A stretch of 42,038 bases of DNA from Candidatus Solibacter sp. (GTDB lineage: Bacteria; Acidobacteriota; Terriglobia; Bryobacterales; Bryobacteraceae): contig JANYJN010000228.1 in the NCBI GenBank assembly GCA_025358475.1, positions 1 to 42,038 of the forward strand. Direction: 5' to 3'. Made by a program: the position numbers and the translations under genes. Under the pieces are notes generated by a model. The model did not search any database and was not told the DNA's origin. It saw only the letters and a list, made by a program, of their open reading frames with translations. Of the stretch, positions 10,781 to 28,268 are shown piece by piece. Each line of letters starts with the position of its first letter. Position 1 is the first letter of the stretch.

Positions 10781-10789
10781 GCCAACAAC

Positions 10790-11749: not shown

Positions 11750-11789
11750 TCACATTTTGTGATCGCGGATTTCCTCGGCTTATGCAGCG

Positions 11790-12506
11790 TTATCCACGGC
11801 CCAGATAGGGCTGGCCAACGGGCAGAACAACGGCTTCCAGCATGTTGATGTGAGCCGGAAGCGACGCCATGGCTACCACCACCTGGACCAACTGGTCCAC
11901 CGTCATCATCGGTTCCGGACGGTTCTTATTCTTTTCGACGAGGGTGTTGCCCGGAAATATGCAGCCACATGAAATCCCGAACTGCCGGCCTTCGAGCGCG
12001 GAAACCTGGGTGAGTCCCCATAGGCCGTGTTTGCTCGTACTGTAGGCCGCGGTGTGGGGCCGAACGCGCTTCGCGGCAAGGGAACCAATGTTAATAATGC
12101 GGCCTCCGCCGGCGGGCTTCATGATCCGAAACGCTTCCCGTGTGCAGAGAAAAGGTCCACGCAGATTCGCCGCCATGACCTTGTCCCAGGTTTCGACCGT
12201 GATTTCCTCCAGCGGACCGCCGTCTGAAACGCCAGCGTTATTGACCAGCAAATCCAGGCGGCTGAACCGCTGGATCGCTTGGGCGAACGCGGCGCATACC
12301 TGGCTTTCGACGGTAACATCCGCAACAACCGCGAGTGCGCGCGAACCCTTCGCCTGTAAATCCCCAGCGACACGCTGAAGCGCATCCTGGCCGCGAGCCA
12401 CCATTACCAGATCGGCGCCTTCGCCTGCCAGCGCTTCGCAGATTCCCCTGCCGATTCCTCGGCTCGCGCCGGTCACCAACGCGGTCCTACCCTGGAGCTT
12501 TTTCAT
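11790..12506 (-). CDS. Short-chain dehydrogenase/reductase (classical SDR)
   Basis: TGASRGIGRG cofactor motif, NNAG, and catalytic YSTSKHG. Confidence 0.85.
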   Translation of the reverse strand: MKKLQGRTALVTGASRGIGRGICEALAGEGADLVMVARGQDALQRVAGDLQAKGSRALAVVADVTVESQVCAAFAQAIQRFSRLDLLVNNAGVSDGGPLEEITVETWDKVMAANLRGPFLCTREAFRIMKPAGGGRIINIGSLAAKRVRPHTAAYSTSKHGLWGLTQVSALEGRQFGISCGCIFPGNTLVEKNKNRPEPMMTVDQLVQVVVAMASLPAHINMLEAVVLPVGQPYLGRG

Positions 12507-12651
12507 GGTTCGTTCTATTCGTGGAGAAGCGGCTTTACTGCCGCTCCGGAGGCAGGAGTGAATGAACGCCGGCCGGTAAGATCAATCCGTCTCACCGTGA
12601 AAAAGAGCGGCAAAACAGATAGCAAACCGGCCAGCTTCAAACAGGTACCCG

Positions 12652-13821
12652 TTATGCCGGCAGGTCGTTCCAGTTCAAGACGCGATGCTCGCGTAAGGAC
12701 TTCTCGGCAAGCAGGATGATCTTGACGGTCGTCTTGGCGGATTCGGGGCCCACCAGAGGCGGTTTGCCCAATCGCAGGCTCTGTGCAAACAATTGATATT
12801 GCTTATAGGTCTCGGGATCCTGGGCCGAGCCCACGGCTTTTCCGACGACCGACTTGGGCGTGTCGTCCACCACGTCCACGTAGCGCACCCCGCCACCGCC
12901 GTGCTTGCGGATTGCAATTTTGCCGTTCTCAGGGTACATCACGCCTTCGCTGCCGATCACCACGAGGCGCCTGCTTGACGGGCCCGCATTCGCCGCGAAC
13001 AGACACAATTCGAAGCTCAACTTCACACCCGAAGCGTATTCGACAATGGCAGCCACGTGATCGACTGTTTCGCGATCTTTATAAACGTTATTACCGCCGG
13101 ACGCGGTGACCCGCACCACCCGGTCGTCGATCATCCAATTGGCGCAGTCGATCTCGTGAACGCCGTCTTCGAGCAGAGCGCTGCCCTCGGTGTACGTGAG
13201 ATAGCGCCAGTTGGTGGCGATGCCGGTCTTGGGGTTCTTGTATTTCCAACTCTTCGGGTTCCAGTCGCCGCGGAAGAGATTACCGCTGACGAACTCGATC
13301 TTGCCTATTTCACCGGCGGCAACCAGATCCCGCATCTTGTTGGTCGCCGGGACCAGGCGCTTTTGGAATCCGATGTACAGGAGCTTGCCGGATTTGCGCG
13401 ACGCCTCGATCATGAGATTGGCATCGTCGATCGTGGTGGCCATCGGCTTTTCGCAGAGTACCGGCAGACCGCGCTCGAACGCGGCCACCGTCACTTCGGC
13501 GTGCAAAAAGCTGGGAGTGATCACCACAACTGCGTCGATATCGTGCCGTTCCGCCAGCAACTTGCGGTAATCCGCGTAGGTTTTGGCACCGGGAGCCAGG
13601 GTAGCCGCACGATCCAGGTTCTCCGGCGTTGGATCGGCCAGCGCTACCACCTGAAAACCGGGTAGAGATTGTAGGATCGCCAAGTGGGCCCATGCCCGGT
13701 ACCCGGTTCCTATGATCGCCAGTCGGATTGGTTTCTCACTCTGCGCCTCGAGCGCGGAGGCCCCCGAAATGATCGCGGACGCCCCCGCCGCCACCAGGAA
13801 TGACCGTCGGTTCGTTTCCAT
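12652..13821 (-). CDS. Tat-exported Gfo/Idh/MocA-family oxidoreductase
   Basis: ATG 13821 is preceded by AGGAGAAAGAG. It has the twin-arginine signal METNRRSFLVAAGASAI, the Rossmann motif LAIIGTGYRAWAHL, and CEKPMA. Confidence 0.85.
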   Translation of the reverse strand: METNRRSFLVAAGASAIISGASALEAQSEKPIRLAIIGTGYRAWAHLAILQSLPGFQVVALADPTPENLDRAATLAPGAKTYADYRKLLAERHDIDAVVVITPSFLHAEVTVAAFERGLPVLCEKPMATTIDDANLMIEASRKSGKLLYIGFQKRLVPATNKMRDLVAAGEIGKIEFVSGNLFRGDWNPKSWKYKNPKTGIATNWRYLTYTEGSALLEDGVHEIDCANWMIDDRVVRVTASGGNNVYKDRETVDHVAAIVEYASGVKLSFELCLFAANAGPSSRRLVVIGSEGVMYPENGKIAIRKHGGGGVRYVDVVDDTPKSVVGKAVGSAQDPETYKQYQLFAQSLRLGKPPLVGPESAKTTVKIILLAEKSLREHRVLNWNDLPA

Positions 13822-13875
13822 TTCTCTTTCTCCTAACGTTTCAAGTATTGGTTCCCACCGGACTGTTGAAGTGCC

Positions 13876-13901
13876 GGGTCGAAGTGCCACCATTTCGACC
13901 C
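13876..13901 (-). terminator. Hairpin between the TIM-barrel and Gfo genes (terminator or processing/attenuation structure)
   Basis: GGGTCGAA-gtgccaccat-TTCGACCC is a perfect 8-bp stem, but no U-tract follows on the minus strand. Confidence 0.3.
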
Positions 13902-13962
13902 GTAAGACTACGCACTGTATAACAGCGGCCGTGAATCCTCAGTTAACCGGGCCGCCCGAGTT

Positions 13963-14823
13963 TCAGACGCCGAAAAGTTTGCGGATGTACTCGCGATCCG
14001 GCCCAACCGCCGCCGTATTGCCGCCCTGCGGGCTACCGCCCTCTTCATCAATGAGCCAACCCGACCAACCGGTTTTCTTCACCGCGGCGGCGAGCGCCTG
14101 GAAATCGAAGTCGCCCTGGCCAAGCGGAACCTGGCCGCTAACCTGCTTGCCGCGGAACGTCTTCAGATGAATTCCATAGATCCGCTTCGAGTTTACAGCT
14201 AGGAAAGCGGCTGGATTACCACCGCCCAGGTATCCGTGTCCGGCATCCATGAGGAAGTTGACCAGAGCGGGATCGGTATTCTCGGCAAGTCCGTCCATTT
14301 CCGCGTTGTGGTTGGCGAACTCCGGGTTGTGGTTGTGATAGGCGAGGCGCAGCCGGTTCTCCTTGAGCATGCGGCCGATCTTGTCCAATTCCTTGGCTTT
14401 CTGCAACAGGGCCTCTTTCTCAAACGCGCCCTCCGCCGACAGACCCTTGCCGCTCATAATGATGCAGTCCGCTCCGAGGGCTGCCACACCGGCGGCAATG
14501 CCCGCACCCTTGGCGCCGCCGACGATGTCCATTCCGGCATGTGCCCCGATGAACGTCATTCCGGTTTTTTCGATCTGCCCGCGCGCGGCCGCGACGCGGC
14601 CGAACTCGCCTTCTACCAGCTTGTAATTACATTCAAAGCCGGTGTAGCCCAAGCTCTTCATCGATTCCAGCACCTTCAGCAGGCCTGGAAAGTCACCCGG
14701 CTTGAGCGGAAAGCCATTGGCTTGACATCCCACCCGAATGGATCCGCTTTTCGCCCATGCGCAAGCGGCCGAAACAGCGGAAGCGGCCACAAGAAATGTC
14801 CGGCGCGAAGTTAGATACGGCAT
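13963..14823 (-). CDS. Tat-exported sugar-phosphate isomerase/epimerase (xylose-isomerase-like TIM barrel)
   Basis: Signal SRRTFLVAASAVSAACAWA; blocks YHNHNPEF, MDAGHG, IHLK and WSGWLIDEEGG. Confidence 0.8.
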   Translation of the reverse strand: MPYLTSRRTFLVAASAVSAACAWAKSGSIRVGCQANGFPLKPGDFPGLLKVLESMKSLGYTGFECNYKLVEGEFGRVAAARGQIEKTGMTFIGAHAGMDIVGGAKGAGIAAGVAALGADCIIMSGKGLSAEGAFEKEALLQKAKELDKIGRMLKENRLRLAYHNHNPEFANHNAEMDGLAENTDPALVNFLMDAGHGYLGGGNPAAFLAVNSKRIYGIHLKTFRGKQVSGQVPLGQGDFDFQALAAAVKKTGWSGWLIDEEGGSPQGGNTAAVGPDREYIRKLFGV

Positions 14824-14840
14824 AATGTCTCCTCGAAACT

Positions 14841-17800
14841 TTAAAAGGCAAGTCTTAGCGATAGTTGGATGTTCCTCGGCTTGTACGCCGAAGTGTATGC
14901 GCCGAAAAGCGGATCGGTCTGAACGCCGTTCTTATCAAACCTGGCGGTTGAGTTCAATCCCGAGAACTGCGTATGGTTGAACGCGTTGAACAGTTCCGTC
15001 CGGAACTGCAGGTACCGGCCCTCGGAGAACAGACGAAACCGCTTACTAATGGCGAGATCCCAGTTATTAACCCCGGGTCCGTACAGAAGGCCTAGGCCCG
15101 CGTTACCGAAACTGCCTCTCGGGGTACGACTGAAAACGCCGGTATTGAAAGTGCGGCTAAAGGTCTTCTGGCTCTTGTCCAGGCGCGGGTCGCCGGTCAC
15201 AGTAATCCGGGCTCCATCGGTGGACCCGGTGGTATCCAGCCCATCCACCAAGCTGAATCCGGGAGTAAACGGGCTGCCGCTTAAGAATGAGGTGATACCA
15301 CTGATCTGCCAGTTGTCCAACACCCACTTGGCGGGTTTGAAACCCGTCATGGTTCCGACTTTCGGCACCTCGTACATGTAGTTCAGCACAAGGGTTTGCG
15401 GCTGATTGAAGTTCGCCGGGCCGTAGTTCCAGGAGCGGGTCGGGAAGTACGAACTAAGGCCGCCAGTGTCGCCGCTCGAAACGGTCAGAATCTTCGACCA
15501 CGTGTAGGAGGCACCGAACTGCACTCCCTTCGAGAAGCGGCGGCTCGCCGAAACCTGCAGCGCATGGTAGTTCGACGTTCCTGTGAACTCCCGCTGATTG
15601 ATATTGCCGTAGCCGCGATACGGGCGGAGGAAATTATCCTGGAGCGGAGTGGAGGTCTGCGTCGGGTCCGCGTTCTTCGGATCAAACCGCGCGAACATCG
15701 GGATTGCGTTGATGTTGCGCTGCACGGAAAGGTGCCGGGCCAAACTGCCGACGTAGGCAAGGTCGAACATCGTGTTGCTAACCTGATGCTGAATCGAAAG
15801 GCTGTAGTTCATCACGGTCGGCATCGGTTGGTTGCCCGAGAGGACAGTGATATCCGAGGGACCCGTGGAGCCGGGGTTTTGTGCGTAGGTGTCCAGCGTT
15901 CCGTAATACAGAGTAGGAGTGGACGTGATGGGAGGATTGCCGGCGCTGTTGTAGAGCGTGTTGCCCGTGACTTTGTCCTTGAAGACGCCGAAGCCGCCAC
16001 GAATAGCGGTCTTGCCGGTCCCAAAGACATCATAACCAAAACCGAAGCGCGGGCCGAATTCCAGCCAGGAAGTGGAGTACAGGCCTAAAGGCACACCGTT
16101 ACCGGCGGCCCGGGAGCCGTTCGCGAAATCTCCGGAATTCGGCACAAAGAGGCCGATCATCGGACTGGGTGCCAGCGCTCCCGTGAGCGGATTTTTGGCA
16201 ACCCGCTTATTCGCGGCGTCCCGCGCGGGAATGTAAAGGACCGGCGCCTTGGATGGATCGTAAAGACCGGGCACGAAGGTGGCCACTGCCCCGCCGCGAT
16301 CGATGGTCGGTGGAGTGTGATAGAAGCGCAAGCCGTAATCGAGGGTCAGTTTCGAGGTGACGCGCCAGTTGTCCTGCACATACCATTCGTAATCCCAGAA
16401 CATGTAATCGCCCTTGGGCTGGTTGTTCGCCTCGGAGTAAGATTGAAAATTCCCGATCAGCGCATTCGCATAGCCGTGCCCGGTGTCCAGCGGGTTGTTG
16501 GTGTCCCGCGCGAAATTGAAGGCGCCGTGGATTTGCGTAGAGGCGGACTGGATCTTATTGTTCCGTTCCACGTAAAAGCCAACTTTCAGACTGTGGCTCT
16601 TCCAAACCTTGCTCAGGCTCTCCGTCAAGGTGTATCCAGGATCCGGAAGAGCGTCCGGAATATTCACATTCAGCGAAGTGTTCGCCGTGTTGACCGGCGT
16701 TCCGCCGAAGGTCAAGGCCGGGATCCAGTTGGCGTTGGGCTGGTCGTGCTTGAACCATTGCGCCGGATTGCCCATGAGCGACCGGTCCAGAACGCTGGGA
16801 TCGGTCGGATAGGTGATCACGTTGTTAAATGCCCGTGTGAAGGTGACTTCGTTAACGAGAGTGGGCGAGAAAACGTTGGTGGCGTGAACGGCTTGCGCAC
16901 GGGAGGGGCGATCCCACATGACCGGCGTCAGCATATAGTTCACGCCGCCAGCGGGCCAGCCGCCCGATCCAGTCTGCAGCAACAGTTTATTGGAATCTTC
17001 AAGCAGGCGATAGAAAACCTGGAACTTCGACGTAATGTTGTAGTCCGCGCGGAACACTTCCTGACGCCGGGGCCAGCTTCCGCTCGGAACCGTGCGGTAG
17101 TTGCGCCGGTACACGTACGCGGGATCGGGATCCGTATAATTTGGCAGCGGCAAGAAATTCAGCATGGCCTGGCCAAGCTTGTTGATGCGGTCCTTGGGTA
17201 TCATGTTTCCCGGGAAGACCAGACCCGTGGCCGGGTCCTTCACTGGAATCTGCGCGCCAGCCACGTCGTAACTCTTTGAGTAGTCGCCGTTTCTTTCGAG
17301 CTGCGTCGGAACGTTGATGAATTGGGGACTCCAGTTATTCTTCGACCCAACGAGTTCCTGCGAGAAGAAGAAGAAGAGCTTGTCCTTCTGCCTGTTAAAA
17401 TTCGTCCTGGGGAGCAAAACCGGCCCACCGACGGAAAATCCCGTAATGCGGTAGCGGTATGGAGCCTTGGCCGTGCCCGTTCGGTTGTCGAAGTAATTAG
17501 CGGCGTCCAGGCTTTCGTGCCTGTAATACTCGTAGGCCGACCCATGAAAATCTTTGGAACCCGATTTGGTGATCACCGTGATCATACCGCCGGCATTGCG
17601 CCCGTACTCAGCCTGATAGTTGCTGGTCATTACCTTGACTTCGGCGATGGCGTCCATATTCGGTTCGCCCGGCACACCGTTATTGCCGGCGTCCAGGCTG
17701 GGCATGCCGTCCACCATCATCAGCACAGATGAATCGCGTCCGCCGTTGATGTGAATTCCAGCCAGCGCGTTGCGCGCCATGGCTTCTCTGCCTTGCGAGG

Positions 17801-18302
17801 CTGTGTCCACAATACCGGGTACCGTCAAGAGGAACGAAGCAAAGTCGCGCCCTTTCACGGCGATTTCGGCAATCTGGGCTCCCGTGACAACGCCCGACCT
17901 CTCGCCGCTCGCTACCTGCACCGGCGTGCCTTGCGCCTCAACCGTCACGCTTTCCACCAGACCGCCCAGTTCCAGCGTGAGCTTTCCGACGCTGCGCACT
18001 TCGCTTGCGGTCAGAACCAGATCGCGAACTAACAGCCTCTTAAAACCATCGGCCTGCACGGTCAGATCGTAAGTTCCTGGTGCAAGGTTGGGGATGACAA
18101 AGGAACCATCCGCTTCCGTGGCAAAGTTCCTCGACACTCCTCTCGCCTGATCGACGAGCGTGCCTTTGCCGCCAGGCACCGTCGCTCCGCTGGAATCCAC
18201 CGCGGTTCCGCTCACAGTGCTGTAGATATTCTGACCAAAAGCCATCGAGGCCGCCAGCAAGAAGCAACCGACAACCATCACACTAACCGTCACACTTCGC
18301 AT
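14841..18302 (-). CDS. TonB-dependent outer-membrane receptor with N-terminal carboxypeptidase-regulatory-like domain
   Basis: Start set at ATG 18302 (MRSVTVSVMVVGCFLLAASMAFGQ signal). It has a CarboxypepD_reg-like segment (SGTAVDSSGATVPG...GSFVIPNLAPGTYDLTV), a plug region, and a huge barrel ending in LSLRLAF. Confidence 0.85.
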   Translation of the reverse strand: MRSVTVSVMVVGCFLLAASMAFGQNIYSTVSGTAVDSSGATVPGGKGTLVDQARGVSRNFATEADGSFVIPNLAPGTYDLTVQADGFKRLLVRDLVLTASEVRSVGKLTLELGGLVESVTVEAQGTPVQVASGERSGVVTGAQIAEIAVKGRDFASFLLTVPGIVDTASQGREAMARNALAGIHINGGRDSSVLMMVDGMPSLDAGNNGVPGEPNMDAIAEVKVMTSNYQAEYGRNAGGMITVITKSGSKDFHGSAYEYYRHESLDAANYFDNRTGTAKAPYRYRITGFSVGGPVLLPRTNFNRQKDKLFFFFSQELVGSKNNWSPQFINVPTQLERNGDYSKSYDVAGAQIPVKDPATGLVFPGNMIPKDRINKLGQAMLNFLPLPNYTDPDPAYVYRRNYRTVPSGSWPRRQEVFRADYNITSKFQVFYRLLEDSNKLLLQTGSGGWPAGGVNYMLTPVMWDRPSRAQAVHATNVFSPTLVNEVTFTRAFNNVITYPTDPSVLDRSLMGNPAQWFKHDQPNANWIPALTFGGTPVNTANTSLNVNIPDALPDPGYTLTESLSKVWKSHSLKVGFYVERNNKIQSASTQIHGAFNFARDTNNPLDTGHGYANALIGNFQSYSEANNQPKGDYMFWDYEWYVQDNWRVTSKLTLDYGLRFYHTPPTIDRGGAVATFVPGLYDPSKAPVLYIPARDAANKRVAKNPLTGALAPSPMIGLFVPNSGDFANGSRAAGNGVPLGLYSTSWLEFGPRFGFGYDVFGTGKTAIRGGFGVFKDKVTGNTLYNSAGNPPITSTPTLYYGTLDTYAQNPGSTGPSDITVLSGNQPMPTVMNYSLSIQHQVSNTMFDLAYVGSLARHLSVQRNINAIPMFARFDPKNADPTQTSTPLQDNFLRPYRGYGNINQREFTGTSNYHALQVSASRRFSKGVQFGASYTWSKILTVSSGDTGGLSSYFPTRSWNYGPANFNQPQTLVLNYMYEVPKVGTMTGFKPAKWVLDNWQISGITSFLSGSPFTPGFSLVDGLDTTGSTDGARITVTGDPRLDKSQKTFSRTFNTGVFSRTPRGSFGNAGLGLLYGPGVNNWDLAISKRFRLFSEGRYLQFRTELFNAFNHTQFSGLNSTARFDKNGVQTDPLFGAYTSAYKPRNIQLSLRLAF

Positions 18303-18345
18303 TTCACGCCTTTCAACAAAGTACACGACGAACCTATCTTGGTCG

Positions 18346-18375
18346 ATAATACATGATATATCAGTTGAGTGTCAA
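18346..18375 (-). promoter_or_regulatory. Sigma70-like promoter for the TonB receptor gene (TTGACA-18 nt-TATTAT)
   Basis: The minus strand reads TTGACACTCAACTGATATATCATGTATTAT; the spacer contains the CTGATATATCA motif. It sits between the LysR stop (18382) and the receptor start. Confidence 0.45.
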
Positions 18376-18381: not shown

Positions 18382-19377
18382 TTACGACCTTTTTACTGGA
18401 TTAACCGCTCCGCTTCGGAGGCCAGGTGACGTGAACTGGTTGCGGAACTGGCGAGCTACGCGCAGGAAGGCTCCCGCCGCGCCTACCGGTTCGGGCCCCT
18501 GAGGATACACGAACTGAAAGGACCGTTTGATCCTTAAGCCTGCCACGGGGACGGCCCGCACACCGGGAGAATCTCCGTCCCGCAGCGCCCAGCGCGAGAC
18601 AAAACCGATGCCCAATCCCGCTGCCACGCCAGACTTGATGGCTTCGGTGGAATCCAGTTCCATGACCACCCACAAGCTGCGCTGGGCCAGACCCCGTTTT
18701 CGAAGAGCATCTTCCACTACCCGCCGCGTGCCCGACCCGGGCTCTCGGAACAAGAGCGGCTCGGCGGCCAGTTGCGCGACTTGCGGCGTTCCATTCTGGG
18801 GATTCAAAAAGGCGTGCCCCTCTGGAACGATGACCACGATGTCGTCATCCACGAATTTCTCGATCTTCAGTTCGCAGGCGCCGGGAGGGCCTTCGATGAG
18901 ACCGAGATCACTCTGCCGTGCGATGACCCGCGCAGCGATTTGCGCGGTGTTCGCGCTGACCACGGAGAGTTCAATGGCAGGATGCAATTGCACGAATTCG
19001 GCGAGTAGGCGGGGGAGCAGATACTGCGCGATCGTGGTGGAAGCGCCCAATGACAACCGCCCGCGCTCTTCGCCATTGAATTGCCCGATGTCTCTCACCG
19101 CTTGCTGCGCCAATTCCTCGACTTCCAGGGCGTAGCGTCGCAGGCGCTCGCCCGCGGCGGTAAGCCGGACTCCGCCCGGGGTGCGTTCGAACAGGCGGAC
19201 TCCGAGTTGCTGTTCCAGGACTTTTACGTGCGAGGTAACGGCGGGTTGGCTGATGTGGAGGAATTCCGCCGCGTGAGTGAAACTGAGGCGCTCGGCCACC
19301 GCACGAAACACGTTTAGCCGAACATTCTGGAGCGATGTGGACAGAAATCCCTCACGATTCGATTGCTTTGGTTGCAC
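18382..19377 (-). CDS. LysR-family transcriptional regulator
   Basis: HTH FTHAAEFLHISQPAVTSHVKVLEQQLGVRLFER followed by a LysR substrate-binding domain. GTG start at 19377; the exact start is uncertain. Confidence 0.85.
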   Translation of the reverse strand: MQPKQSNREGFLSTSLQNVRLNVFRAVAERLSFTHAAEFLHISQPAVTSHVKVLEQQLGVRLFERTPGGVRLTAAGERLRRYALEVEELAQQAVRDIGQFNGEERGRLSLGASTTIAQYLLPRLLAEFVQLHPAIELSVVSANTAQIAARVIARQSDLGLIEGPPGACELKIEKFVDDDIVVIVPEGHAFLNPQNGTPQVAQLAAEPLLFREPGSGTRRVVEDALRKRGLAQRSLWVVMELDSTEAIKSGVAAGLGIGFVSRWALRDGDSPGVRAVPVAGLRIKRSFQFVYPQGPEPVGAAGAFLRVARQFRNQFTSPGLRSGAVNPVKRS

Positions 19378-19435
19378 CGCCGGATACGCTTTCCGTGAGG
19401 TCCGCGTGCCCGGCGGGATGCGCCACCGTGGGGTA

Positions 19436-20632
19436 CTAAGCGCTTTCGTACAGCCGGGTGAAGACGAACTCCCGATGTCCGAGCACCTCGGCGCTCGTCA
19501 GCCGGCCATTCGCTGTCTGGAAAATGACGTCCAGAAGGTTGTCGCCGGCCTGATCCAGATTCATCTCCCGGCGCAGGATGCCCGAGACGTCCAGGTCGAT
19601 GTGCTCCTTCATGGTACGTACAGTGCGCGGGTTTCCGCAGAGCTTGATCACCGGCAAGATCGGGTTTCCGATCACGTTGCACTGGCCGGTCGGGAACGTG
19701 TGCACCACGAATCCGGCGGCAGCCACCAGCGTTACCATTTCCGCCGCGGCGGAAGAGGAATCCATGAACCAGAGGCCGGGCCCCGTAGGCGATTCCGCCT
19801 TGTCCAGCACGCCGTCAACGACGCACTTCCTTCCGATCTTCTGGATGTTCCCGAGTGCCTTTTCCTCAATGGTCGTGAGACCGCCCGCAATGTTGCCCTT
19901 CGTTGGCTGTGAGTCGGAGAGATCGCTCGTCTTATGACGGTTGATCAAATCCTGGTAGCGGTTGAACATCGCCATGAATTGCTCGGCGATTTCAGGCGTT
20001 CGGCAACGATTGGCCACCATGCGTTCGCCGCCCGTGATTTCAGTGGTCTCACCGAAAACCAGGGTCAACCCTTGTTCGTAGAGTTTGTCAAACGCGTTTC
20101 CCACGGTTGGGTTCCCGGCCAGTCCCGAGGTCGTGTCGGACTCGCCACACTTAGTCGAAACCCACAGGTCGTGGATGGGCCGTTCTTCGCGAACCAGTGA
20201 CGATGCATGTTGGACAAAATCTTTCGCGGCACGCGACGCACGCGCGACCGTGTCGATATCGCCATGCAACTCGATGCCGAATCCCACTACCGGCTTGCCG
20301 GTCGCGGCAATGCCGTCAACTACTTTTTGCGTCCACTGTTCTTCAATGCCGATAACCACTACGGCAGCCACGTTGGGATTGGATCCGGTGCCAATTAACG
20401 TGCGGAAATGTAGATCCAGGTCCGCCCCAAACTGGAGGCGGCCGTAAGGGTGCGGCAACGCCATAGCGCCCTTAATGTGATTAGCGGTGGCTTCCGCCGC
20501 CGCGTTCGACAGGTCGTCAACGGGAAGGATGATGACATGGTTCCGGACGCCAACGCGCCCATTTTCTCGCCGGTAACCCGAGAATACCTTATTCTTGAGA
20601 TCGATAGCCAAAGTTCTGTTCCTCTCTACCAA
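19436..20632 (-). CDS. UxaA-family dehydratase/lyase large subunit (C-terminal catalytic domain); SuyB-like candidate
   Basis: [38 protein letters not shown] and [22 protein letters not shown] are altronate-dehydratase C-terminal blocks. The protein is about 398 aa. The non-ATG (TTG) start at 20632 overlaps the small-subunit stop by 7 nt. Confidence 0.8.
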
Positions 20633-20913
20633 CGTTTCGTCTTGACATTATGCACGTGCAGATGCTCGCCCACCTGGATCGGCGCAACGGTCCGCCCGAT
20701 GTCCACTCCGTACTTGATCACGGTGGCGCCATTCGCCAAGGCTTTGATCGCGAGTTTGTGCCCGATCGGAATATCGTTCAAGGCTTTGAAATTCACGATC
20801 TTGTCCTGGTCCATGATCCATCCGGAGAGCATGTCCTGTGCTTTGACGTCTTCCACGACAATAACCCCAACCGAGTCCCCTTCGTCATGAACCACAAAAT
20901 GAATTTTTTCCAT
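20626..20913 (-). CDS. UxaA-family small subunit (SAF domain only, 95 aa); SuyA-like candidate
   Basis: The SAF-domain pattern [15 protein letters not shown]...[22 protein letters not shown] corresponds to the N-terminus of single-chain UxaA. A strong RBS (GGAAAGGAG) precedes ATG 20913. Confidence 0.8.
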
Positions 20914-20939: not shown

Positions 20940-20976
20940 GATATCTAATATCTCGCTTTTGCCCCGGCTGTGTCAA
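20940..20976 (-). promoter_or_regulatory. Sigma70-like promoter for the split-UxaA genes
   Basis: The minus strand reads TTGACA-cagccggggcaaaagcg-AGATATTAGATATCA, i.e. a -35 box plus 17 nt, then overlapping GATAT repeats. Confidence 0.45.
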
Positions 20977-21206: not shown

Positions 21207-24200
21207 TTAGAAGGCGAGCTTCAAGGCAAACTGGAGCACGCGCGCATCGCTCGCAGCGGTGATTTTTCCAAACGTGCCCGAATTTAACGCCGAGGTCGGC
21301 GGTGCGAAATTCGCCCGGTTTTCGATGTTGAACGCCTCGGCACGGAATTGCAGATAGCGCTTTTCCGTGAACTTGAAGTTCTTGAAGATCGAAACGTCCA
21401 TATTAAAGAGTCCCGGTGCCCGCATGGAGTTGCGCCCAAGGTTCCCAAACGTCCCGATCGCCGCCGGAACAAACGCCCCGGTATTGAAATACTGGGCGAC
21501 CTGGTTGGCGCCTACCACACGGGTGGGGTCGCCGACCAGGTCGGCATAGTCGTTGCCGATACCGGAGATCGACCGGTCCGTACCGCTCACAATCGTGAAC
21601 GGCATCCCGCTCATGATGGCCGTGATCACGTTGACTTGCCAGTCGTTCAGAAGGGCGTTGCCGACGCCGGTCACGTGAACATGCGGCGTGTTGTAGACGG
21701 TTGAGAGGTTAAACCGGAACTTCTGGTCGAAGTCAGCCGGCCCCCTGGCGGAATTGAAGTTGAACGGATTGTGAGGTCCGGTACCGCCTTCTGCGGCACT
21801 GGAGTTGTTGTCGATGGTTTTCGACCAGACCAAATTCCCCAGCAGCGTAAGGCCGCGCGTGAGCCGTTGATTTAAGCTCAACTGCAGCGAGTGGAAATGG
21901 GCGTATTCGTACGAGGATGCGTATTCCACCGCCCCCATTCCCGGGTACAACCGATGGCTGTTCTCTTGCCCGACAGTCGCCCCGGGGGAGTACAACGCGG
22001 GATTCAACTGCCGGGAACCCATGATGTTCACCCCGTGATTCCCCACGTAAGCGGCCGTAAACACCAGGTTGCTGCGGAGTTGGCGTTCCACTGTGAGGTT
22101 CCAGTTTTCCGTATACCCCACCCTGGAGGCTGGATCCAGCATGCCCCCGGAAACCGGCAGGATGAACTTGTAAGTGGCGAATTGCCCAGGTAAGATGTGC
22201 GGTCTCGGGAACGGATTGCCGCCCGGGAAGCCGAGATAAGGATTCGTGAAGCTGGCCGGATTCGGAATGCTTAGGTACAAATCGGTGGGCTGCGTGGCGT
22301 TGGTCCGCTGGTAGAGCAGGCCCTCCGGGAAACTGTAGAAGATGCCGGCGCCTCCGCGGATCACGGTCTTTCCGTCCCCGCCTACGTTCCAGGCGAAGCC
22401 GGCGCGCGGCGCAAACGCCATCCAGTTGTGCTTGAAGACCGAGGCCGTGATTCCCGCATCCCCCGGGAAGAGCAGGCCGAGCGGGGCGTTCGGAGCGACT
22501 ACTGACTGCCTGCCGGGCACAAAAGCCGTCAAAGCGTTGTTCTTGTCGATCGGCGCCAGCCACGGCTCCCAGCGCACCCCGATATTGACGGTGAATTGGC
22601 GGCTCACCTTCCAGTCGTCCTGGAAGTACAGCGAGGGCCGGCTGCCCCGAAGATAGAGTGTTCGACCGTTGTCCTGGAAGAACTGCGAGGGGTAGCCCAG
22701 GAAGAAATCCGACACAGCGTTGCCGGTCACTTGTCCATTAAACGCGTTGTCGCCCGGTACATAGGAGTAATCGTTGACGTTGATCCGGGTCCGCTCAAAT
22801 TCGAATCCGAAGTTCATCGTGTGAGAACTCAGGAGCTTGGTTCCCGAGGCCTTCCATACAAACGACGTGGGGTACTGACGGAGCGCGCCGCCCGAGAAGA
22901 CGTTAACGAAGCCGGAGATGTTCGCCCGCACCCCGGGGAAGACCGGCACGGCCGTGCCGAGCGGAACCTGCACGCCCAGGTCCTGCAGAGTTTTCAACCC
23001 AGGAGCCTGTGGAACCTGAGTGCGGGCGAATCGCCCGAAGCTCAAAAACAGGGAGCCTGTCAGGGTCGGGCTGAAGATCTGCGTATCCGTCACAGCGGCG
23101 CTCTGATTCAGGAAGTAATTAGCGGCATAGAACCCGGTAGGCGCGTTGAACGTCCTCCAGAAATCGTTCTCGTCGTGGAAGTACCGGGCGCTGAGGTGAT
23201 TGGTGGACGTGATCATCTGGTCTACCTTGGCCAGCCATTGCAGGTCGTCGACGTGTTTGAACTGGGTCCCGACCCACTGCGTACCACGGTTGGGAAGCGG
23301 CAGGTATAGGTCCGCGACCTTCTGCGAAACCGAATTAAACCTGCTGATCGGAATTATGTTGCCTGGAAATGGCGTGTTGCCGTTGGCTGGATCCACGATC
23401 ACGGTCTTGGGCAGCAACGCCGAAAAATCGCCCTGACGCTGTGCTGCCGTTGGCGGGGTGATGGAAATGCCGCTCGGCGCCGCTCTCTGAACCTGATCCT
23501 GTACGGAGACGAAGAAGAAGGCTTTGTTGCGTCGAATCGGTCCGCCAAATGCGCCACCAAACTGGTTCTGCTTATAGGGAGGACGCGTCAGTTGGAAGAA
23601 ATTTCGGGCGTTCAGCTTGGTGTTCCGGAAGAACTCGAAGGCAGTCCCGTGAAATTCGTTGGTTCCAGACCGCGTGGAAAGCTGCACCAGCGCGCCAGCT
23701 CCGCCGAATTCCGCGCTGTAGGCGGAAGTCTTGATCGTGAACTCTTCGAGCGTGTCAGGGTTCGGCATGGTAGGCACCGAATCGAAGAAGCGGTTGGTGT
23801 AGATGGTCCCGTCCAACTGGAAATTATTCTGTGTGGTGCGGAGGCCGTTTACGGCAATTCCGCGGTTGTCCTGCTGGCCGGCTTCCGTGCCGACGTCTGT
23901 CATGACGGTGCCGGGCGTGAGGATCGTCAATTGCAGTGCGTTGCGCCCGTTCAGGGGTAGATCTACCATCTGCCTCTGTGTCACGGATGATTGCACCGTG
24001 GAGGAGGTGGTCTGCATCAGTTCGCCCTCGGCCGTGACCTCCACCGCCTGGGTCAGGTCACCTACCTGCAGGCTGACTTGAATGTCGAGTATCTGTCCGG
24101 TGACCAGAGCGATGCTTTCCATGCGTTGCGGCCGGAAGCCCTGTTTCTGCATTTCCACCTGGTACTGCCCGATAGGTAGGTCGGGAAACACGAACGCGCC

Positions 24201-24416
24201 GCCACTCGAGCTGTCCGCTTTCCGGGTCAACCCGGTGCCAGTATTCGTGCACGTCACTGCCACGCCGGGGACCACACTACCGGATGCATCGGTTACGGTG
24301 CCGCCGATGCGTCCCGTCGCCTGGCCAAACAGGACTTGGCTTGAGAAAAGACAGCAAAGAACAGTCAGGAAGATCAACAAGAACTTGTGTGAATAGAGGC
24401 GGTGCGATTTCGTCAT
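21207..24416 (-). CDS. TonB-dependent outer-membrane receptor with N-terminal carboxypeptidase-regulatory-like domain (second copy)
   Basis: Start set at ATG 24416 (MTKSHRLYSHKFLLIFLTVLCCLFSSQVLFGQ), preceded by GGAGAAGGAG. It has a CarboxypepD_reg-like segment (GGTVTDASGSVVPGVAVT...FVFPDLPIGQYQVEM), a plug and a barrel ending in FALKLAF. Confidence 0.85.
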   Translation of the reverse strand: MTKSHRLYSHKFLLIFLTVLCCLFSSQVLFGQATGRIGGTVTDASGSVVPGVAVTCTNTGTGLTRKADSSSGGAFVFPDLPIGQYQVEMQKQGFRPQRMESIALVTGQILDIQVSLQVGDLTQAVEVTAEGELMQTTSSTVQSSVTQRQMVDLPLNGRNALQLTILTPGTVMTDVGTEAGQQDNRGIAVNGLRTTQNNFQLDGTIYTNRFFDSVPTMPNPDTLEEFTIKTSAYSAEFGGAGALVQLSTRSGTNEFHGTAFEFFRNTKLNARNFFQLTRPPYKQNQFGGAFGGPIRRNKAFFFVSVQDQVQRAAPSGISITPPTAAQRQGDFSALLPKTVIVDPANGNTPFPGNIIPISRFNSVSQKVADLYLPLPNRGTQWVGTQFKHVDDLQWLAKVDQMITSTNHLSARYFHDENDFWRTFNAPTGFYAANYFLNQSAAVTDTQIFSPTLTGSLFLSFGRFARTQVPQAPGLKTLQDLGVQVPLGTAVPVFPGVRANISGFVNVFSGGALRQYPTSFVWKASGTKLLSSHTMNFGFEFERTRINVNDYSYVPGDNAFNGQVTGNAVSDFFLGYPSQFFQDNGRTLYLRGSRPSLYFQDDWKVSRQFTVNIGVRWEPWLAPIDKNNALTAFVPGRQSVVAPNAPLGLLFPGDAGITASVFKHNWMAFAPRAGFAWNVGGDGKTVIRGGAGIFYSFPEGLLYQRTNATQPTDLYLSIPNPASFTNPYLGFPGGNPFPRPHILPGQFATYKFILPVSGGMLDPASRVGYTENWNLTVERQLRSNLVFTAAYVGNHGVNIMGSRQLNPALYSPGATVGQENSHRLYPGMGAVEYASSYEYAHFHSLQLSLNQRLTRGLTLLGNLVWSKTIDNNSSAAEGGTGPHNPFNFNSARGPADFDQKFRFNLSTVYNTPHVHVTGVGNALLNDWQVNVITAIMSGMPFTIVSGTDRSISGIGNDYADLVGDPTRVVGANQVAQYFNTGAFVPAAIGTFGNLGRNSMRAPGLFNMDVSIFKNFKFTEKRYLQFRAEAFNIENRANFAPPTSALNSGTFGKITAASDARVLQFALKLAF

Positions 24417-24570
24417 GAATACTCCTTCTCCGGCCTCGAAACAGCGGCTGCGCTGCCGATTCGTGCGAGAGATTCTCATTCGCTGCGTCCTACAAGGCAC
24501 GCACGCTGGCCTAAGCAAGTCCGACTTTCCATTTAACGACCCGCGAATCCGAAGGCCCACCAACGATTTC

Positions 24571-24992: not shown

Positions 24993-25694
24993 CTAGCGCA
25001 GCGCCGCGAAGGTCGGGCCCTGGTTTTGTTCTTGTGCGGGTTTCGGCCGCTGTCCTTGTTCCAAAAACTCAAGCAGTTTGCCGCGGACGGTGCGGATGTG
25101 CTCATTCATGGCGTGCTCGGCGCGCGGCCGCTCCCCGGTTTCGAGCGCCGCGATGATGGCCTCATGGGTATCGGCCGCCGTGCTGCTGGATAGGTCGTAG
25201 GTCTTGCGGCGCAAAATCCAGATCTGGTTTTGCACGTTCTCCAGCATTCTGCAAAGGCGGTTGTTGCCAGTCGCGTTCGCCAGCAAGGCATGAAAGCGCA
25301 AGTCTTCTTCGATGTAATGCGGCTTATCGTTATCCCTCAGGGCCTGACGCATCTGCCGAGCGCTCTGCTTCAATTCGGCGAAAAGCTTCGGGGATAGGGC
25401 CGCTGTGTGGACCACGTGCGTTTCGAGAGCGCTTCGTAAGTCGTAGAGATCGTTAATGTCCTGGATGGAGTAATCTCGGAGGTAGGCGCCTCTTCGGGGT
25501 TCGATGTGAATGAACCCCTCCGTTTCCAGGCGGTTCAGCGCTTCCCGGATCGGCGATTTGCTGATGCCGAGACTGGTGGAGAGGAATTCCTCCGTCAGCC
25601 GCGCGCCTTCGTCAAGTCTTCCGTCAAGTATGTATCGCTTGATGCTGTCGTATGCCAGCGACGTTAGGTTCGATGGAATCTTGAGTTTCTTCAT
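24993..25694 (-). CDS. GntR-family transcriptional regulator (FadR subfamily, FCD effector domain)
   Basis: Winged HTH LAYDSIKRYILDGRLDEGARLTEEFLSTSLGISKSPIREALNRLETEGFIHIEPRRGAYL, followed by an all-helical FCD-like domain with His residues. Confidence 0.85.
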   Translation of the reverse strand: MKKLKIPSNLTSLAYDSIKRYILDGRLDEGARLTEEFLSTSLGISKSPIREALNRLETEGFIHIEPRRGAYLRDYSIQDINDLYDLRSALETHVVHTAALSPKLFAELKQSARQMRQALRDNDKPHYIEEDLRFHALLANATGNNRLCRMLENVQNQIWILRRKTYDLSSSTAADTHEAIIAALETGERPRAEHAMNEHIRTVRGKLLEFLEQGQRPKPAQEQNQGPTFAALR

Positions 25695-25755: not shown

Positions 25756-27363
25756 TTAATGCCACTCCCACTCGATGAAACCCGGCTTCGCCGCTGTCAT
25801 AGCGTTTACAATCAACTCCGCCAGACCACCGTACAGAATCTTGTGTTTGTTCCACAGATCGTAATAAGCCAGCAGATCCCGGATCTGGCCCTTGCAATTG
25901 CTGCACGGCGCGCAGACGTACTTGGGCGTCTCCGGCTCCAGGCATCCGGAGAATGCGTTCAGGATCTGTTGCAGTTTCTTGCGGCCCGCAACATGGAATC
26001 GCCAATCCGGGAAATTGGTCCCGCTCATGATCGCGAAACCGCTTCCGCCGCCACAACAGTAGTTGTCCACTCCGTGCGGTGTCATTTCCCGGAATTGGGG
26101 GCAGATCTTGCGGAGGATTTCCCGCTGCGGTTCCACTACCCCCATCAGCCTCACCATATTGCAGGGATCGTGCAGCGTCACCGGAAAATCATTGCGGCTG
26201 GGATCTAGTTCCAGGCGCCCGCTCATGACGATGTCGCGGAGCAGCGCCATGGAGCTTTCGCGCCGTACGTTCATGTCACCCGTCAGAATGCGGTCGGCGA
26301 TCACCGACAGCGCCTTGTGGGCGTGGCCGCACTCGCCGATTACAATCTTCTTCACCTTCAGCTTGCGGGCGATCTCGGCGTGCTTCAGCGCAACCCTGGC
26401 AAATTGGGCGTCGTCGTACCACAGGCCGTAGTTGATGGCGTCGTATCCGGCCATCTCCGACGATAGCGTCCACTTGATTCCGGCCGCCGTCAGGATTAGG
26501 GCGAATGCTCCTGGATTCTCAGGCCAGGCCAGAATTTCGCCGGCATTGTGAAGCAAAAGGACATCCGCTCCTTCCACATCCCACGGTGTCTCGATTTTGA
26601 TCCCGGTCTTTTCCGACGTGTCCTCGTCAATGAACTCCATGTTGTCTTTCACTGCCGCCGGAGTCATGCCGGTGGACGAGCCCGTCTTGAGTTGCAGCAT
26701 CGAGCCGTTATCGTGGATTTCCTTCGGCGCGATACCCATCTCCATGCTGAACAGCTTGCGCAACTCGTGCGCCACCAGACCATTGTCGGCGCCGACCGGG
26801 CAGGTTTGCGCACATCGCCGGCACAGATTGCAGCGGTAGGACAATTCGATCAGGCGCGCCACCAGCGGCCAGTTGAGTTCGATGTCGCCATGCTGCAGCG
26901 CCGACAGCAATCCGCCGCCTTTGACGTGTTTGAAGTACAGCCGGCGCAGAACTTCGGAGCGAAAAGTAGGCCGGTACACCTCATTGCGCCCGCTGGCTTC
27001 GAAGATGTGGCAGGAGTCCGCGCAGGTCTGACAGCGCGTGCAATGTTCCATCGTAAGGATGAGCGGCTGCAGGAACGTCCAATTGTTCTCCTTGGAGAAC
27101 AGCTTATCCAGGCCCGCGGCGAACTGGCGCACCAACACTTGTTCTTCTTCGAGCGATTTGGGCCGCGGAATTGAGACCGCGCAGGTATTGTCCAGCGAGC
27201 ATTCGCATGCCTCTATCGTCCGCGGCGCCAGGGGCTTCCAGCTTTTGTCCTTGCCGGGCGAGTCGAACGGCGCGGGCAGGGGCATCAACTCCTCGTTGAC
27301 TACGTGAGTCAGGGGCTCCCGCGACGCGCGGGAGATATCTGTGAGTTTCAGGTCGGCGCTCAT
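25756..27363 (-). CDS. DsrK-like / HdrD-like CCG-domain iron-sulfur protein (second copy)
   Basis: Two ferredoxin-type motifs (CTRCQTCADSC and CNLCRRCAQTCP) and CCG-domain blocks (HDPCNMVRL, NYCCGGGSGF, CAPCSNCKGQ). ATG 27363 overlaps the upstream stop. Confidence 0.75.
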   Translation of the reverse strand: MSADLKLTDISRASREPLTHVVNEELMPLPAPFDSPGKDKSWKPLAPRTIEACECSLDNTCAVSIPRPKSLEEEQVLVRQFAAGLDKLFSKENNWTFLQPLILTMEHCTRCQTCADSCHIFEASGRNEVYRPTFRSEVLRRLYFKHVKGGGLLSALQHGDIELNWPLVARLIELSYRCNLCRRCAQTCPVGADNGLVAHELRKLFSMEMGIAPKEIHDNGSMLQLKTGSSTGMTPAAVKDNMEFIDEDTSEKTGIKIETPWDVEGADVLLLHNAGEILAWPENPGAFALILTAAGIKWTLSSEMAGYDAINYGLWYDDAQFARVALKHAEIARKLKVKKIVIGECGHAHKALSVIADRILTGDMNVRRESSMALLRDIVMSGRLELDPSRNDFPVTLHDPCNMVRLMGVVEPQREILRKICPQFREMTPHGVDNYCCGGGSGFAIMSGTNFPDWRFHVAGRKKLQQILNAFSGCLEPETPKYVCAPCSNCKGQIRDLLAYYDLWNKHKILYGGLAELIVNAMTAAKPGFIEWEWH

Positions 27364-28268
27364 TTATTCGTTCCTGTATTGGGATTAGTCGTGGCCACCT
27401 CCGCCCAGGTCGCTTTGCCGTCGGCGCCGACGTGCCGGGCGGACCAAGTGGGCTTATACGCTAAGCATTCGGCGACTTTCGCCTCAAGCGAGCGCTCATT
27501 CCGGTTTGGCTTGTCGTCCCAACGCACCGCGTGATAGGTGAAATATTTGCCAATGAAATGCGCCATGTGCGTCATCGGGATGTAGAGGATCAACGCCGCG
27601 GCTACGGCCAACGCCCCTGCCAGTGCCGCCGGCAGTTCCAGGCTGGTATCGAACGCCAGCAAACCGCGCAGGATGGCGCGCACGCTCGGTGCCGCGGGAG
27701 ACTGGGACCCGTACGCAAACAACAGGCCGGAGACAGTGCCGATAAAGCAGCAGAGATTGAATACGTCCCCCGGCGTGGTGTAGTTTCTTAGCTTCGGGTC
27801 TCTCAGACGCCGCCAGAGCAGGCCGGCCGCCCCGGCCAGCACCAGGACCGCTCCGGCCAGTCCCGCGGCTTTATACAGAGGATGAAGCCATGGCGTGAGC
27901 GCCGGCGCCACCGCTGCAACACTGGCGGTCACGCCCGTGAAGATCAGCAGATATAAGCCGAGGTGGAAAGGATAGGAGCGGAACCACAGGCTCCGGTTAA
28001 ATTCCCAGACGCCCTTAAGAAACAGGATCTCGCATCCCATGGCCTTCAATTCACCAAGCAGGTTGGGGCGTGCGGACCGCGTCCACCAGTCTGTATCCTC
28101 ATAGCGGGAGCCACCGTAAGCGGCCCGTCGCGCCTCCTCGTGGGGAACCGGGTACAATTCCCAACGAAGATGCAGGGGATACCGGGCGTACCGCAATGCC
28201 CGCACCACGCAAGCGGTCAGCGAGACCAGAAGACAGGCGTAAATCCATCCGTAAAGCAAAGCAGTCAC
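27360..28268 (-). CDS. DsrM-like (NarI/HmeC-type) integral-membrane cytochrome b (second copy)
   Basis: RYARYPLHLRWELYPVPHEE N-terminal block, multiple TMS with conserved His (YPFHLG, MTHMAHF). GTG start at 28268 is preceded by GGAGGA. Confidence 0.7.
   Translation of the reverse strand: MTALLYGWIYACLLVSLTACVVRALRYARYPLHLRWELYPVPHEEARRAAYGGSRYEDTDWWTRSARPNLLGELKAMGCEILFLKGVWEFNRSLWFRSYPFHLGLYLLIFTGVTASVAAVAPALTPWLHPLYKAAGLAGAVLVLAGAAGLLWRRLRDPKLRNYTTPGDVFNLCCFIGTVSGLLFAYGSQSPAAPSVRAILRGLLAFDTSLELPAALAGALAVAAALILYIPMTHMAHFIGKYFTYHAVRWDDKPNRNERSLEAKVAECLAYKPTWSARHVGADGKATWAEVATTNPNTGTNK

Follow-up and report, generated by a model that had tools for sequence, protein, structure and literature searches.

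Gene pair, start codons and promoter

The stretch from position 1 to 42,038 of contig JANYJN010000228.1 of Candidatus Solibacter sp. (Acidobacteriota, assembly GCA_025358475.1), which we call the window, carries on its minus strand a split dehydratase-type gene pair that very probably encodes the sulfolactate sulfo-lyase SuyAB. The gene of the small subunit, suyA, and the gene of the catalytic subunit, suyB, are arranged head to tail and are followed by the gene of a LysR-type regulator, and a block of dsr genes begins 4.8 kb from suyA (Table 1). A preliminary description of this locus had noted SAF and catalytic domains in separate genes with a LysR gene downstream, and all three open reading frames (ORFs) were found on the minus strand. 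The Pfam match of SuyA to SAF is weak (E 0.007), and its alignment with the N-terminus of GarD reaches E 1e-5. The longest suyB ORF (19436-20632) matches GD_AH_second with E 7e-33 and GD_AH_C with E 3e-85.

This longest ORF gave rise to the earlier claims of a 398-aa large subunit and a 7-nt overlap of the two genes. SuyB is 389-391 aa long in 120 of the 120 closest homologues, which points to a start at TTG 20611, located 14 nt past the suyA stop with GAGAGGAA ahead as ribosome-binding site. The overlap is therefore probably not real, and the length of 398 aa is an artefact of the longest ORF. The 58 nt given as distance to the LysR gene likewise depend on the chosen start: the LysR gene is present, and its 309-aa gene-caller form leaves a gap of about 124 nt.

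The strong ribosome-binding site described for suyA is seen as AGGAG ahead of its ATG. The proposed TTGACA promoter is also present (20976-20947, 10/12 matches), with a spacer of 18 nt instead of 17 nt. An AT-rich GATAT..ATATC element (20940-20952) covers its -10 region and occurs as a single copy in the 42-kb window. The same element is found upstream of suyA in the related loci L184, L185, L003, L004, L007, L015-L017, L024, L026 and L032, which makes it a feature of most acidobacterial loci, and it is kept despite differing neighbour genes; another subgroup carries it in the form GATATCATATACTAC. Judged by this pattern, the element is a candidate and probable operator. The best sigma-70-like match of the region, TTGACA-18-TATTAT (18346-18375, minus strand, 11/12), lies just past the LysR stop. 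It stands upstream of the outer-membrane protein gene at 14841-18326, which probably has its own promoter.

Orthology of SuyB and SuyA

SuyB was searched by tblastn against plasmids, in contigs of one genome per species and, exhaustively and without profiles, among 1.8 billion representatives. The plasmid search returned 13 records at 61-76% identity, with the next ones at 39% or below. The protein of Cupriavidus pinatubonensis is 74.6% identical by tblastn (75.4% in the tree alignment) and is encoded in the context hpsN-hpsO-MFS-hpsP-like-suyA-suyB, where MFS is a major facilitator superfamily transporter. The Paracoccus versutus protein on plasmid pTAV3 (65%) stands in the order GntR-suyA-suyB-'sulfate exporter'. 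This locus connects the window to biochemistry: the P. versutus SuyA is 100% identical over all 67 residues to the Swiss-Prot entry SUYA_PARPN (Q58Y44), the SuyA of the purified P. pantotrophus enzyme. SuyA of the window shares 51% identity with P. versutus SuyA, 60% over 55 aa with SUYA_PARPN and 71-86% with its acidobacterial relatives. The annotated lengths of SuyA differ: Q58Y44 comprises 67 aa (about 8 kDa), the identical P. versutus ORF (6707-6997 of locus L001) 96 aa and the acidobacterial proteins 94-95 aa. The difference points to an internal start in the Swiss-Prot entry or to a mature subunit with a shorter N-terminus.

Further orthologues of SuyB in Methylobacterium (71%) and Rhodococcus (62%) are encoded near genes for TauE, ComC-type Ldh_2, a hydroxyacid dehydrogenase, an aldehyde dehydrogenase and YeiH-type proteins. 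In the one-genome-per-species contigs, many proteins of Burkholderiales, Variovorax and Rhodospirillaceae are 78-83% identical. Among 80 genome loci with SuyB at 78-90%, a SuyR-type GntR gene lies within 10 kb in 36, slcC-like plus comC-like genes in 23-25 and hpsN in 10. In the exhaustive search, the closest full-length cluster is at 74%, a few groups are at 46-50%, and the remainder is at 41% or below.

As a check, the preliminary description had proposed a phylogeny of the large subunit. In a neighbour-joining tree with 100 bootstraps, the window protein falls within the SuyB clade with 99-100% support, while fused and split dehydratase-type members lie outside of it; the tree is of this one type and was built without the SuyB of Desulfovibrio sp. 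DF1 and of Chromohalobacter (C. salexigens).

In an alignment of 30 superfamily sequences, N24, N80, E188, K323 and D339 of SuyB are invariant, and C155 is present in all but one sequence. The UxaA residues C132, C166 and C199 stand opposite L34, R58 and a gap in SuyB, and only C264 is kept, as C155. That SuyAB lacks the cysteines conserved in other UxaA/GarD enzymes was described by Watanabe 2019. We considered this loss as a diagnostic feature and discarded it, as several split members outside the SuyB clade also lack these cysteines. The motif at the retained cysteine does separate the groups, with S-T-K-C-G-E in the SuyB clade versus G-x-E-C-G-G in the dehydratase-type members sampled. All 26 clade-discriminating positions are common to the window SuyB and the proteobacterial members. 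GarD (6U7L, E 2.5e-31) is the sole solved relative. Compared with a UxaA/GarD dehydratase, the window protein has one of four cysteines, the S-T-K-C-G-E motif, 27-41% identity and no partner genes in the window.

The split architecture and the subunit sizes had been taken as an argument for SuyAB. The architecture is as described, and its diagnostic value is low, because split UxaA-family enzymes also occur in sugar-acid clusters; alone, it does not identify SuyAB. One such pair lies in a fucose-type cluster of Bacillus sp. F19 (39% identity), and for another member of the UxaA/GarD superfamily, gene context (unpublished data) led Watanabe 2019 to the assignment as heteromeric L-fuconate dehydratase. 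These sugar-acid-type split relatives are 36-41% identical to the window SuyB. It is the sequence relationship that is decisive for SuyAB. With 61-83% identity to proteins of sulfonate clusters, the position within the SuyB clade and the synteny in relatives, the proposal of SuyAB rather than a hexuronate dehydratase holds, and we regard the pair with high confidence as orthologous to SuyAB.

The identity of 78-83% between SuyB of Acidobacteria and of Burkholderiales, Rhodospirillaceae and Gammaproteobacteria looks unusually high across phyla and therefore suggests either horizontal spread or very strong constraint. Base composition is uninformative on recent transfer, as the GC content is uniform across the window (0.55-0.63).

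The dsr cluster and its link to suyAB

The dsr set of the window is complete for sulfite reduction (DsrABC-MKJOP). DsrC (35308-35625) has the C-terminal sequence ...CKLAGLPKPTGCV, and DsrJ (31885-32283) is of the three-haem type. The DsrL-like gene (35662-36708) is short, with 348 aa as ORF, similar to the short DsrL of the metagenome-assembled genomes (MAGs) SbA4 and SbA5. A second dsrM2K2 pair (25756-28268) flanks dsrN. No dsrD-like ORF is present between dsrB and dsrL in the window; L003 has a 144-aa gene at that place.

The distance of about 5 kb between dsr and suyAB had been used as an argument for SuyAB. This argument is reinforced, since at least five more arrangements with suyAB abutting dsr occur in Acidobacteria. 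In L003 and L027, GntR-suyA-suyB converges on dsrPOJKMT-C-L-BA. L032 carries MFS-GntR-suyA-suyB-dsrN-M2-K2-A-B-L on one strand, and L026 has suyAB-dsrN...dsrABL. In L107, suyAB stands against dsrK2-M2-N-P-O, and in L017 and L104 it is followed by dsrN.

The idea of a link between suyAB and dsr is correct and has already been published. In the peat acidobacterial MAG SbA4, Hausmann et al. 2018 located suyAB on the scaffold that carries dsrM2K2; they detected suyB transcripts and proposed that organosulfonates feed sulfite to the acidobacterial Dsr. In their study, the MAGs carrying suyAB were those with genes for sulfite reduction only. A 2023 review restates the proposal for Acidobacteria.

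Regulators and candidate exporter

Two types of regulator accompany acidobacterial suyAB. The best NCBIfam model for the LysR protein is the selenium-metabolism LysR, followed by YeiE, both below cut-off. None of about 170 suyB-centred loci contains an orthologue of this LysR, which had made it appear as a non-conserved neighbour. A homologue search seeded with LysR overturned this view: it returned L184 and L185 with suyAB, and L186 to L188 with LysR-YeiH pairs. The LysR orthologues (69-80% identity) adjoin YeiH, and in L184 and L185 suyAB as well. L184 shows exactly the order of the window, suyA-suyB-LysR-OMP-TIM-GFO-SDR-YeiH-epimerase, at 75-89% identity (OMP, outer-membrane protein; TIM, TIM-barrel protein; GFO, GFO/IDH/MocA oxidoreductase; SDR, short-chain dehydrogenase/reductase). 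L185 carries MFS-mutarotase-TIM-LysR-YeiH-suyA-suyB on one strand, with a YeiH orthologue (70%) directly between LysR and suyA. The pairing of LysR with YeiH recalls yeiE-yeiH of E. coli.

The COG2855/YeiH gene had been described on the same strand as suyAB, and its PF03601 match and minus-strand position agree with this. It had also been put forward, together with LysR, in support of SuyAB. Within the window this argument is weak, because YeiH is 7 kb away and only 29% identical, over half of the length, to the SuyZ-like protein of P. versutus; in the relatives L184 and L185 it is good. The window YeiH is of the same family as the Paracoccus SuyZ-like protein, and we rejected it as an orthologue on that similarity. 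Its functional analogy to a SuyZ-like exporter rests on synteny, and YeiH is a candidate for this role.

The GntR/FCD regulator is the recurrent regulator neighbour in the suyB-centred acidobacterial loci. Its orthologues (64-73%) immediately precede suyA in L003, L017-L020, L032 and L104, and in L015 the orthologue is about 9 kb downstream of suyAB, within 10 kb. We do not consider it an orthologue of the Paracoccus/proteobacterial SuyR-type GntR, to which it is 31% identical over the helix-turn-helix region only. Recurrent neighbours of acidobacterial suyAB thus include GntR/FCD regulators, LysR-YeiH pairs and dsr genes. The comparison places the LysR-YeiH pair, in addition to GntR, in the suy locus of Acidobacteria. 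In the Variovorax-type loci L047, L051, L053, L056, L138, L152 and L155, a LysR gene stands beside the SuyR-type GntR upstream of suyA-suyB-slcC-comC; its identity of 33-36% is too low for an orthology call.

Neighbouring genes and a possible source of sulfolactate

Table 1. Genes and sites of the window discussed in the text, with position, strand and basis of assignment.
Feature	Position	Strand	Basis and remarks
suyA, small SAF-type subunit of sulfolactate sulfo-lyase (probable)	20626-20913	-	95-aa ORF, homology
suyB, catalytic subunit (probable)	19436-20611	-	391 aa from TTG 20611; longest ORF from TTG 20632
suyA promoter-like TTGACA-18-GATATT with AT-rich GATAT..ATATC over -10	20940-20976	-	promoter scan
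LysR-type regulator	18382-19377	-	Pfam HTH_1 and LysR_substrate; start uncertain, 309 aa in gene calls
YeiH/PF03601 membrane protein, candidate sulfite/sulfate exporter (SuyZ-like role)	10790-11749	-	Pfam E 1e-44, NCBIfam YeiH
GntR/FCD regulator	24993-25694	-	Pfam
dsrK2, dsrM2, dsrN, dsrP, dsrO, dsrJ, dsrK, dsrM, dsrT, dsrC, short dsrL-like, dsrB, dsrA	25756-38996	-	Pfam
Second TonB-type outer-membrane protein, between GntR gene and suyA	21207-24563	-	Pfam CarboxypepD_reg, Plug, OMP_b-brl_4
TonB-type outer-membrane protein	14841-18326	-	Pfam
TIM barrel, Tat signal	13963-14823	-	Pfam, signal sequence
GFO/IDH/MocA oxidoreductase, Tat signal	12652-13893	-	Pfam, signal sequence
Aldose epimerase-like protein, Sec signal	9710-10741	-	Pfam, signal sequence; envelope block 9710-18326 (YeiH and SDR inside)
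Xylose-isomerase-like TIM barrel	8839-9699	+	profile match
TTE1925-type mutarotase-like protein	7916-8842	+	NCBIfam TTE1925
ACS-family MFS importer	6597-7919	+	profile matches; block 6597-9699
Malate-racemase-like LarA homologue	5197-6468	-	Pfam, NCBIfam, PDB
Lactaldehyde-dehydrogenase-like aldehyde dehydrogenase	3762-5201	-	Pfam, NCBIfam, PDB
Small transaldolase	3069-3740	-	Pfam, NCBIfam, PDB; trio 3069-6468
DcaP-like outer-membrane protein	1612-2988	-	orthologues 69-72% in L185, L186 beside the same gene set
Bicupin, weak KduI/IolB similarity	437-1237	-	Pfam, NCBIfam

The genes around suyAB travel with it in shuffled order, as seen in the window, L015, L017, L032, L107, L184, L185 and L187. 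The genes for transaldolase, aldehyde dehydrogenase and the LarA homologue form an operon-like trio, divergent from the MFS-mutarotase-TIM genes; in L185 this trio is 5 kb away from suyAB, it occurs again in L187, and a LarA orthologue is found near suyAB in L015. GFO and TIM-barrel orthologues stand beside suyAB in L015, L016, L017, L032 and L107, and the second outer-membrane protein has orthologues (64-65%) in the suyAB loci L017, L032, L104 and L107. The mutarotase-like ORF, which overlaps the MFS stop by 4 nt, has no Pfam match and scores 267 bits with TTE1925, below cut-off; it is kept at 46-66% identity in the suyAB neighbourhoods of L107, L185 and L187.

SuyAB needs (R)-sulfolactate, and sulfolactate derived from sulfoquinovose is the (S)-enantiomer. 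Lactaldehyde dehydrogenase and dehydrogenases that act on anionic C2-C4 aldehydes are the nearest relatives of the aldehyde dehydrogenase. The LarA homologue comprises Lar_N and LarA_C (Pfam E 1.6e-64) and aligns over its full length with the malate racemase Mar2 (6D6Z, E 2e-83), including GTHR, FHQIAGYSGGRK and NH. The catalytic His pair, the Lys that binds the nickel-pincer nucleotide and the Ni-ligand His of LarA-type enzymes are all present; matches to NCBIfam LarAH10 and LarAH6 stay below the cut-offs, and the window contains no larB, larC or larE. Sulfolactate is isosteric with malate. The LarA homologue is thus a candidate nickel-dependent sulfolactate racemase that could supply (R)-sulfolactate.

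The transaldolase aligns better with Tal of T. acidophilum (1.7e-72) than with BmSF-TAL (1.3e-45). Sulfofructose transaldolases carry a sulfonate-orienting W-A-R where ordinary small transaldolases have the phosphate-binding G-R (PMC11659671). The window protein keeps the Arg in SPFIHRLDM as well as ASIRN, and the WAR motif is absent. An assignment as one of the known sulfofructose transaldolases (SftT/SqvA, Bacillus-type sulfo-TAL) was rejected, since the protein is nearer to Tal and keeps the phosphate-binding Arg/Ser/Arg without WAR. The suyAB-linked transaldolases of the window, L017, L032, L107, L185 and L187 share SPF[IL]HR followed by LDM or KEL, versus SPFVGRLDD in the T. acidophilum reference, and both ASIR and the Arg that binds phosphate are conserved in them. 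These proteins may be a subfamily of their own, and we retain the window transaldolase as a lead for its synteny and its unusual HR motif.

Among solved structures, those of the C-glycoside 3-oxidase DgpA and, in second and third place, of SqgA (8QC2/8QC3, E 6e-23/4e-22) match the GFO/IDH/MocA protein at 12652-13893 best. Compared with ArSqgA, equivalents of the EKP Lys, Glu189 and His193 are kept, and His321 is outside the alignment. At the sulfonate and catalytic sites, Tyr136 and Arg166 are replaced by Lys and Lys172 by Ile. The protein resembles a GH188 sulfoquinovosidase only in part, does not conserve the sulfonate-binding residues and has a Tat signal. GFO/IDH/MocA and xylose-isomerase-like TIM-barrel proteins with twin-arginine signals occur in the window as three pairs or singletons (12652-13893, 13963-14823, 39101-40222, 40321-41169 and 8839-9699). 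The set has its best solved relatives among enzymes that cleave glycosides oxidatively (DgpA, SqgA and the 8TC*/8TD* entries). By their signals and relatives, the Tat- and Sec-exported GFO, TIM-barrel and epimerase proteins appear to work together in the periplasm as a module for glycoside processing, beside the TonB-type outer-membrane proteins.

Discussion

SuyAB would cleave sulfolactate in this acidobacterium as it does in the characterised organisms. The Fe(II)-dependent and oxygen-sensitive enzymes of P. pantotrophus and Desulfovibrio DF1 split (R)-3-sulfolactate into pyruvate and sulfite. For the window, our analysis shows orthology to these enzymes, gene architecture, conserved residues and recurrent synteny, and we infer catalysis, metal dependence, regulation and Dsr coupling. 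SuyB, with its UxaA/GarD fold, would be the catalytic subunit and would probably require Fe(II). It would take the alpha-proton of (R)-sulfolactate and beta-eliminate the sulfonate as sulfite, and the resulting enol-pyruvate would give pyruvate. SuyA would act as a detached SAF/beta-clip domain that stimulates activity, and both genes would be transcribed from the conserved promoter. The physiology is most likely organosulfonate respiration, in which pyruvate would enter carbon and energy metabolism and Dsr would reduce sulfite to sulfide. Sulfite that is not respired could be exported via YeiH.

The recurrent shuffled synteny and the isostery of sulfolactate and malate suggest where the sulfolactate may come from. 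We tentatively propose, as a possibility of less than even probability, that the window encodes a self-contained and hitherto undescribed pathway that leads, in one acidobacterium, from a sulfosugar to sulfide, with sulfoquinovose or its glycosides as the simplest starting compound. TonB-type outer-membrane proteins would take up the substrate, Tat-exported GFO and TIM-barrel enzymes would process it in the periplasm, and the ExuT-like anion-sugar MFS would import the product. The mutarotase and the TIM-barrel isomerase would act next, followed by the variant small transaldolase, which would cleave the sugar to sulfolactaldehyde. The lactaldehyde-dehydrogenase-like enzyme would form (S)-sulfolactate, and the nickel-pincer LarA homologue would invert it to (R)-sulfolactate in place of the SlcC/ComC pair. 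Cleavage by SuyAB and reduction of the sulfite by Dsr would complete the route. A literature search found no description of a LarA-type sulfolactate racemase or of such a sulfosugar route. For Acidobacteria, no sulfoquinovose route is listed in recent reviews on sulfoquinovose catabolism and on dsrAB-carrying organisms, and the former does not contain the phylum at all.

Several points weigh against a reading as sulfolactate-fed sulfite respiration. On the side of Dsr, no dsr genes lie within 10 kb of suyAB in L004, L007, L015 and L016, so coupling to Dsr is not obligatory, and Hausmann et al. 2018 discuss the reversibility of acidobacterial Dsr and also propose the oxidative direction. On the side of sulfolactate supply, family and homologue scans of the window found no slcC, comC, hpsN, tauE or known sulfolactate importer; the acidobacterial suy loci L043 and L063 carry a comC-like gene. 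The MFS is ExuT-like (32% identity), and together with the sugar-type periplasmic oxidoreductases and the weak KduI-type cupin it would also suit a sugar-acid pathway. The restricted method and sampling of the SuyB tree add to these points.

The points on Dsr favour an alternative in which SuyAB serves carbon acquisition by desulfonation only, with sulfite exported by YeiH or detoxified and with dsr independent, oxidative or disproportionating. It agrees with the YeiH-type exporter being the tightest neighbour in L185, as in aerobic Paracoccus. Yet suyAB directly adjoins dsr, often on the same strand, in at least five differing loci such as L032, the suyAB MAGs held sulfite-reduction genes only, and Desulfovibrio DF1 provides a precedent for transfer of sulfite to Dsr. 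We consider desulfonation alone unlikely.

The missing SlcC/ComC pair could also mean that this lyase of the SuyAB clade acts on another beta-sulfonated 2-hydroxy acid or on the other enantiomer, and the acidobacterial neighbours (GFO, TIM, transaldolase, outer-membrane protein) are indeed unlike every characterised suy cluster. However, 75-83% identity to proteobacterial SuyB, with agreement at each of the discriminating positions, leaves scant room for an altered pocket, and the malate-racemase-like LarA homologue could give the (R)-enantiomer. A different substrate is therefore quite improbable. Least probable of all, and hardly tenable, is a heteromeric UxaA/GarD sugar-acid dehydratase (for altronate, fuconate or similar) with the ExuT-like transporter and with dsr nearby by coincidence: the split enzymes of sugar clusters, the MFS, the cupin and the nearby mutarotase and TIM-barrel genes would fit it, but identity to split dehydratases is far below that to sulfonate-cluster proteins, the SuyB clade is well supported by bootstrap, the active-site motif differs from that of all dehydratase-type members sampled, and the window lacks the partner genes. 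As the preliminary description had stated, none of uxaB, uxaC, uxuA, kdgK and eda is found among the ORFs scanned, though the weak KduI/IolB-type cupin is present, and the same family scans gave no garL/garR, FAH-type or fucU partner gene in the window.

Sulfolactate cleavage coupled to sulfite reduction, the reading that we prefer, can be compared with four known systems. The Paracoccus SuyAB, represented by the P. versutus locus, has the same two-gene architecture, which pairs a small SAF subunit with a catalytic one of about 42 kDa (SuyB 65%, SuyA 51-60%), and a PF03601 (YeiH/SuyZ-type) membrane protein in the locus, as do the relatives of the window. Its order suyR(GntR)-suyA-suyB-suyZ belongs to an aerobe/denitrifier that oxidises sulfite, whereas the window combines LysR and an unrelated GntR/FCD regulator with dissimilatory sulfite reductase. 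For Desulfovibrio sp. DF1, Burrichter et al. 2018 showed that recombinant, Fe(II)-reconstituted SuyAB cleaves sulfolactate, with sulfite passed on to Dsr, that SuyB alone is weakly active and that DF1 SuyB exceeds 70% identity across phyla. The described physiology, from sulfolactate to pyruvate and sulfite and then to Dsr, is the one we propose here. In DF1, sulfolactate is formed from 2,3-dihydroxypropane-1-sulfonate (DHPS) via DhpA and SlaB, while the window has no DhpA or HpsN homologue. The DHPS pathway of Cupriavidus pinatubonensis JMP134 (hpsNOP; Mayer et al. 2010) is the physiologically studied locus with the highest SuyB identity, and its upstream dehydrogenases HpsN, HpsO and HpsP are likewise absent from the window.

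The closest match in phylum and habitat type is given by SbA4 and SbA5 (Hausmann et al. 2018), with suyAB and dsrM2K2 on one scaffold and a short DsrL. SbA5 has comC and slcC, which the window lacks. In that study, the genes were annotated without orthology tests, and the conserved neighbours (LysR-YeiH, transaldolase-aldehyde dehydrogenase-LarA, MFS-mutarotase-TIM and the Tat-exported GFO/TIM proteins) were not described. The UxaA/GarD and heteromeric L-fuconate-type dehydratases (COG2721) share the fold and the beta-elimination chemistry with SuyAB. They differ by an identity of only 27-41% and by three of the four superfamily cysteines, which are missing in SuyB, and their leaving group is hydroxide, whereas it is sulfite in SuyAB.

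As to the link between suyAB and dsr, the window confirms what had been published. New from the comparison is a set of genes around suyAB that can be tested and that points to the origin of the sulfolactate and to a possible nickel-dependent racemase. If the proposed route is true, the LarA homologue would represent a novel type of sulfolactate racemase. SuyAB opens organosulfonates derived from plant sulfolipid to sulfite-respiring bacteria, and in peat of low sulfate content it could sustain a cryptic sulfur cycle that competes with methanogenesis.

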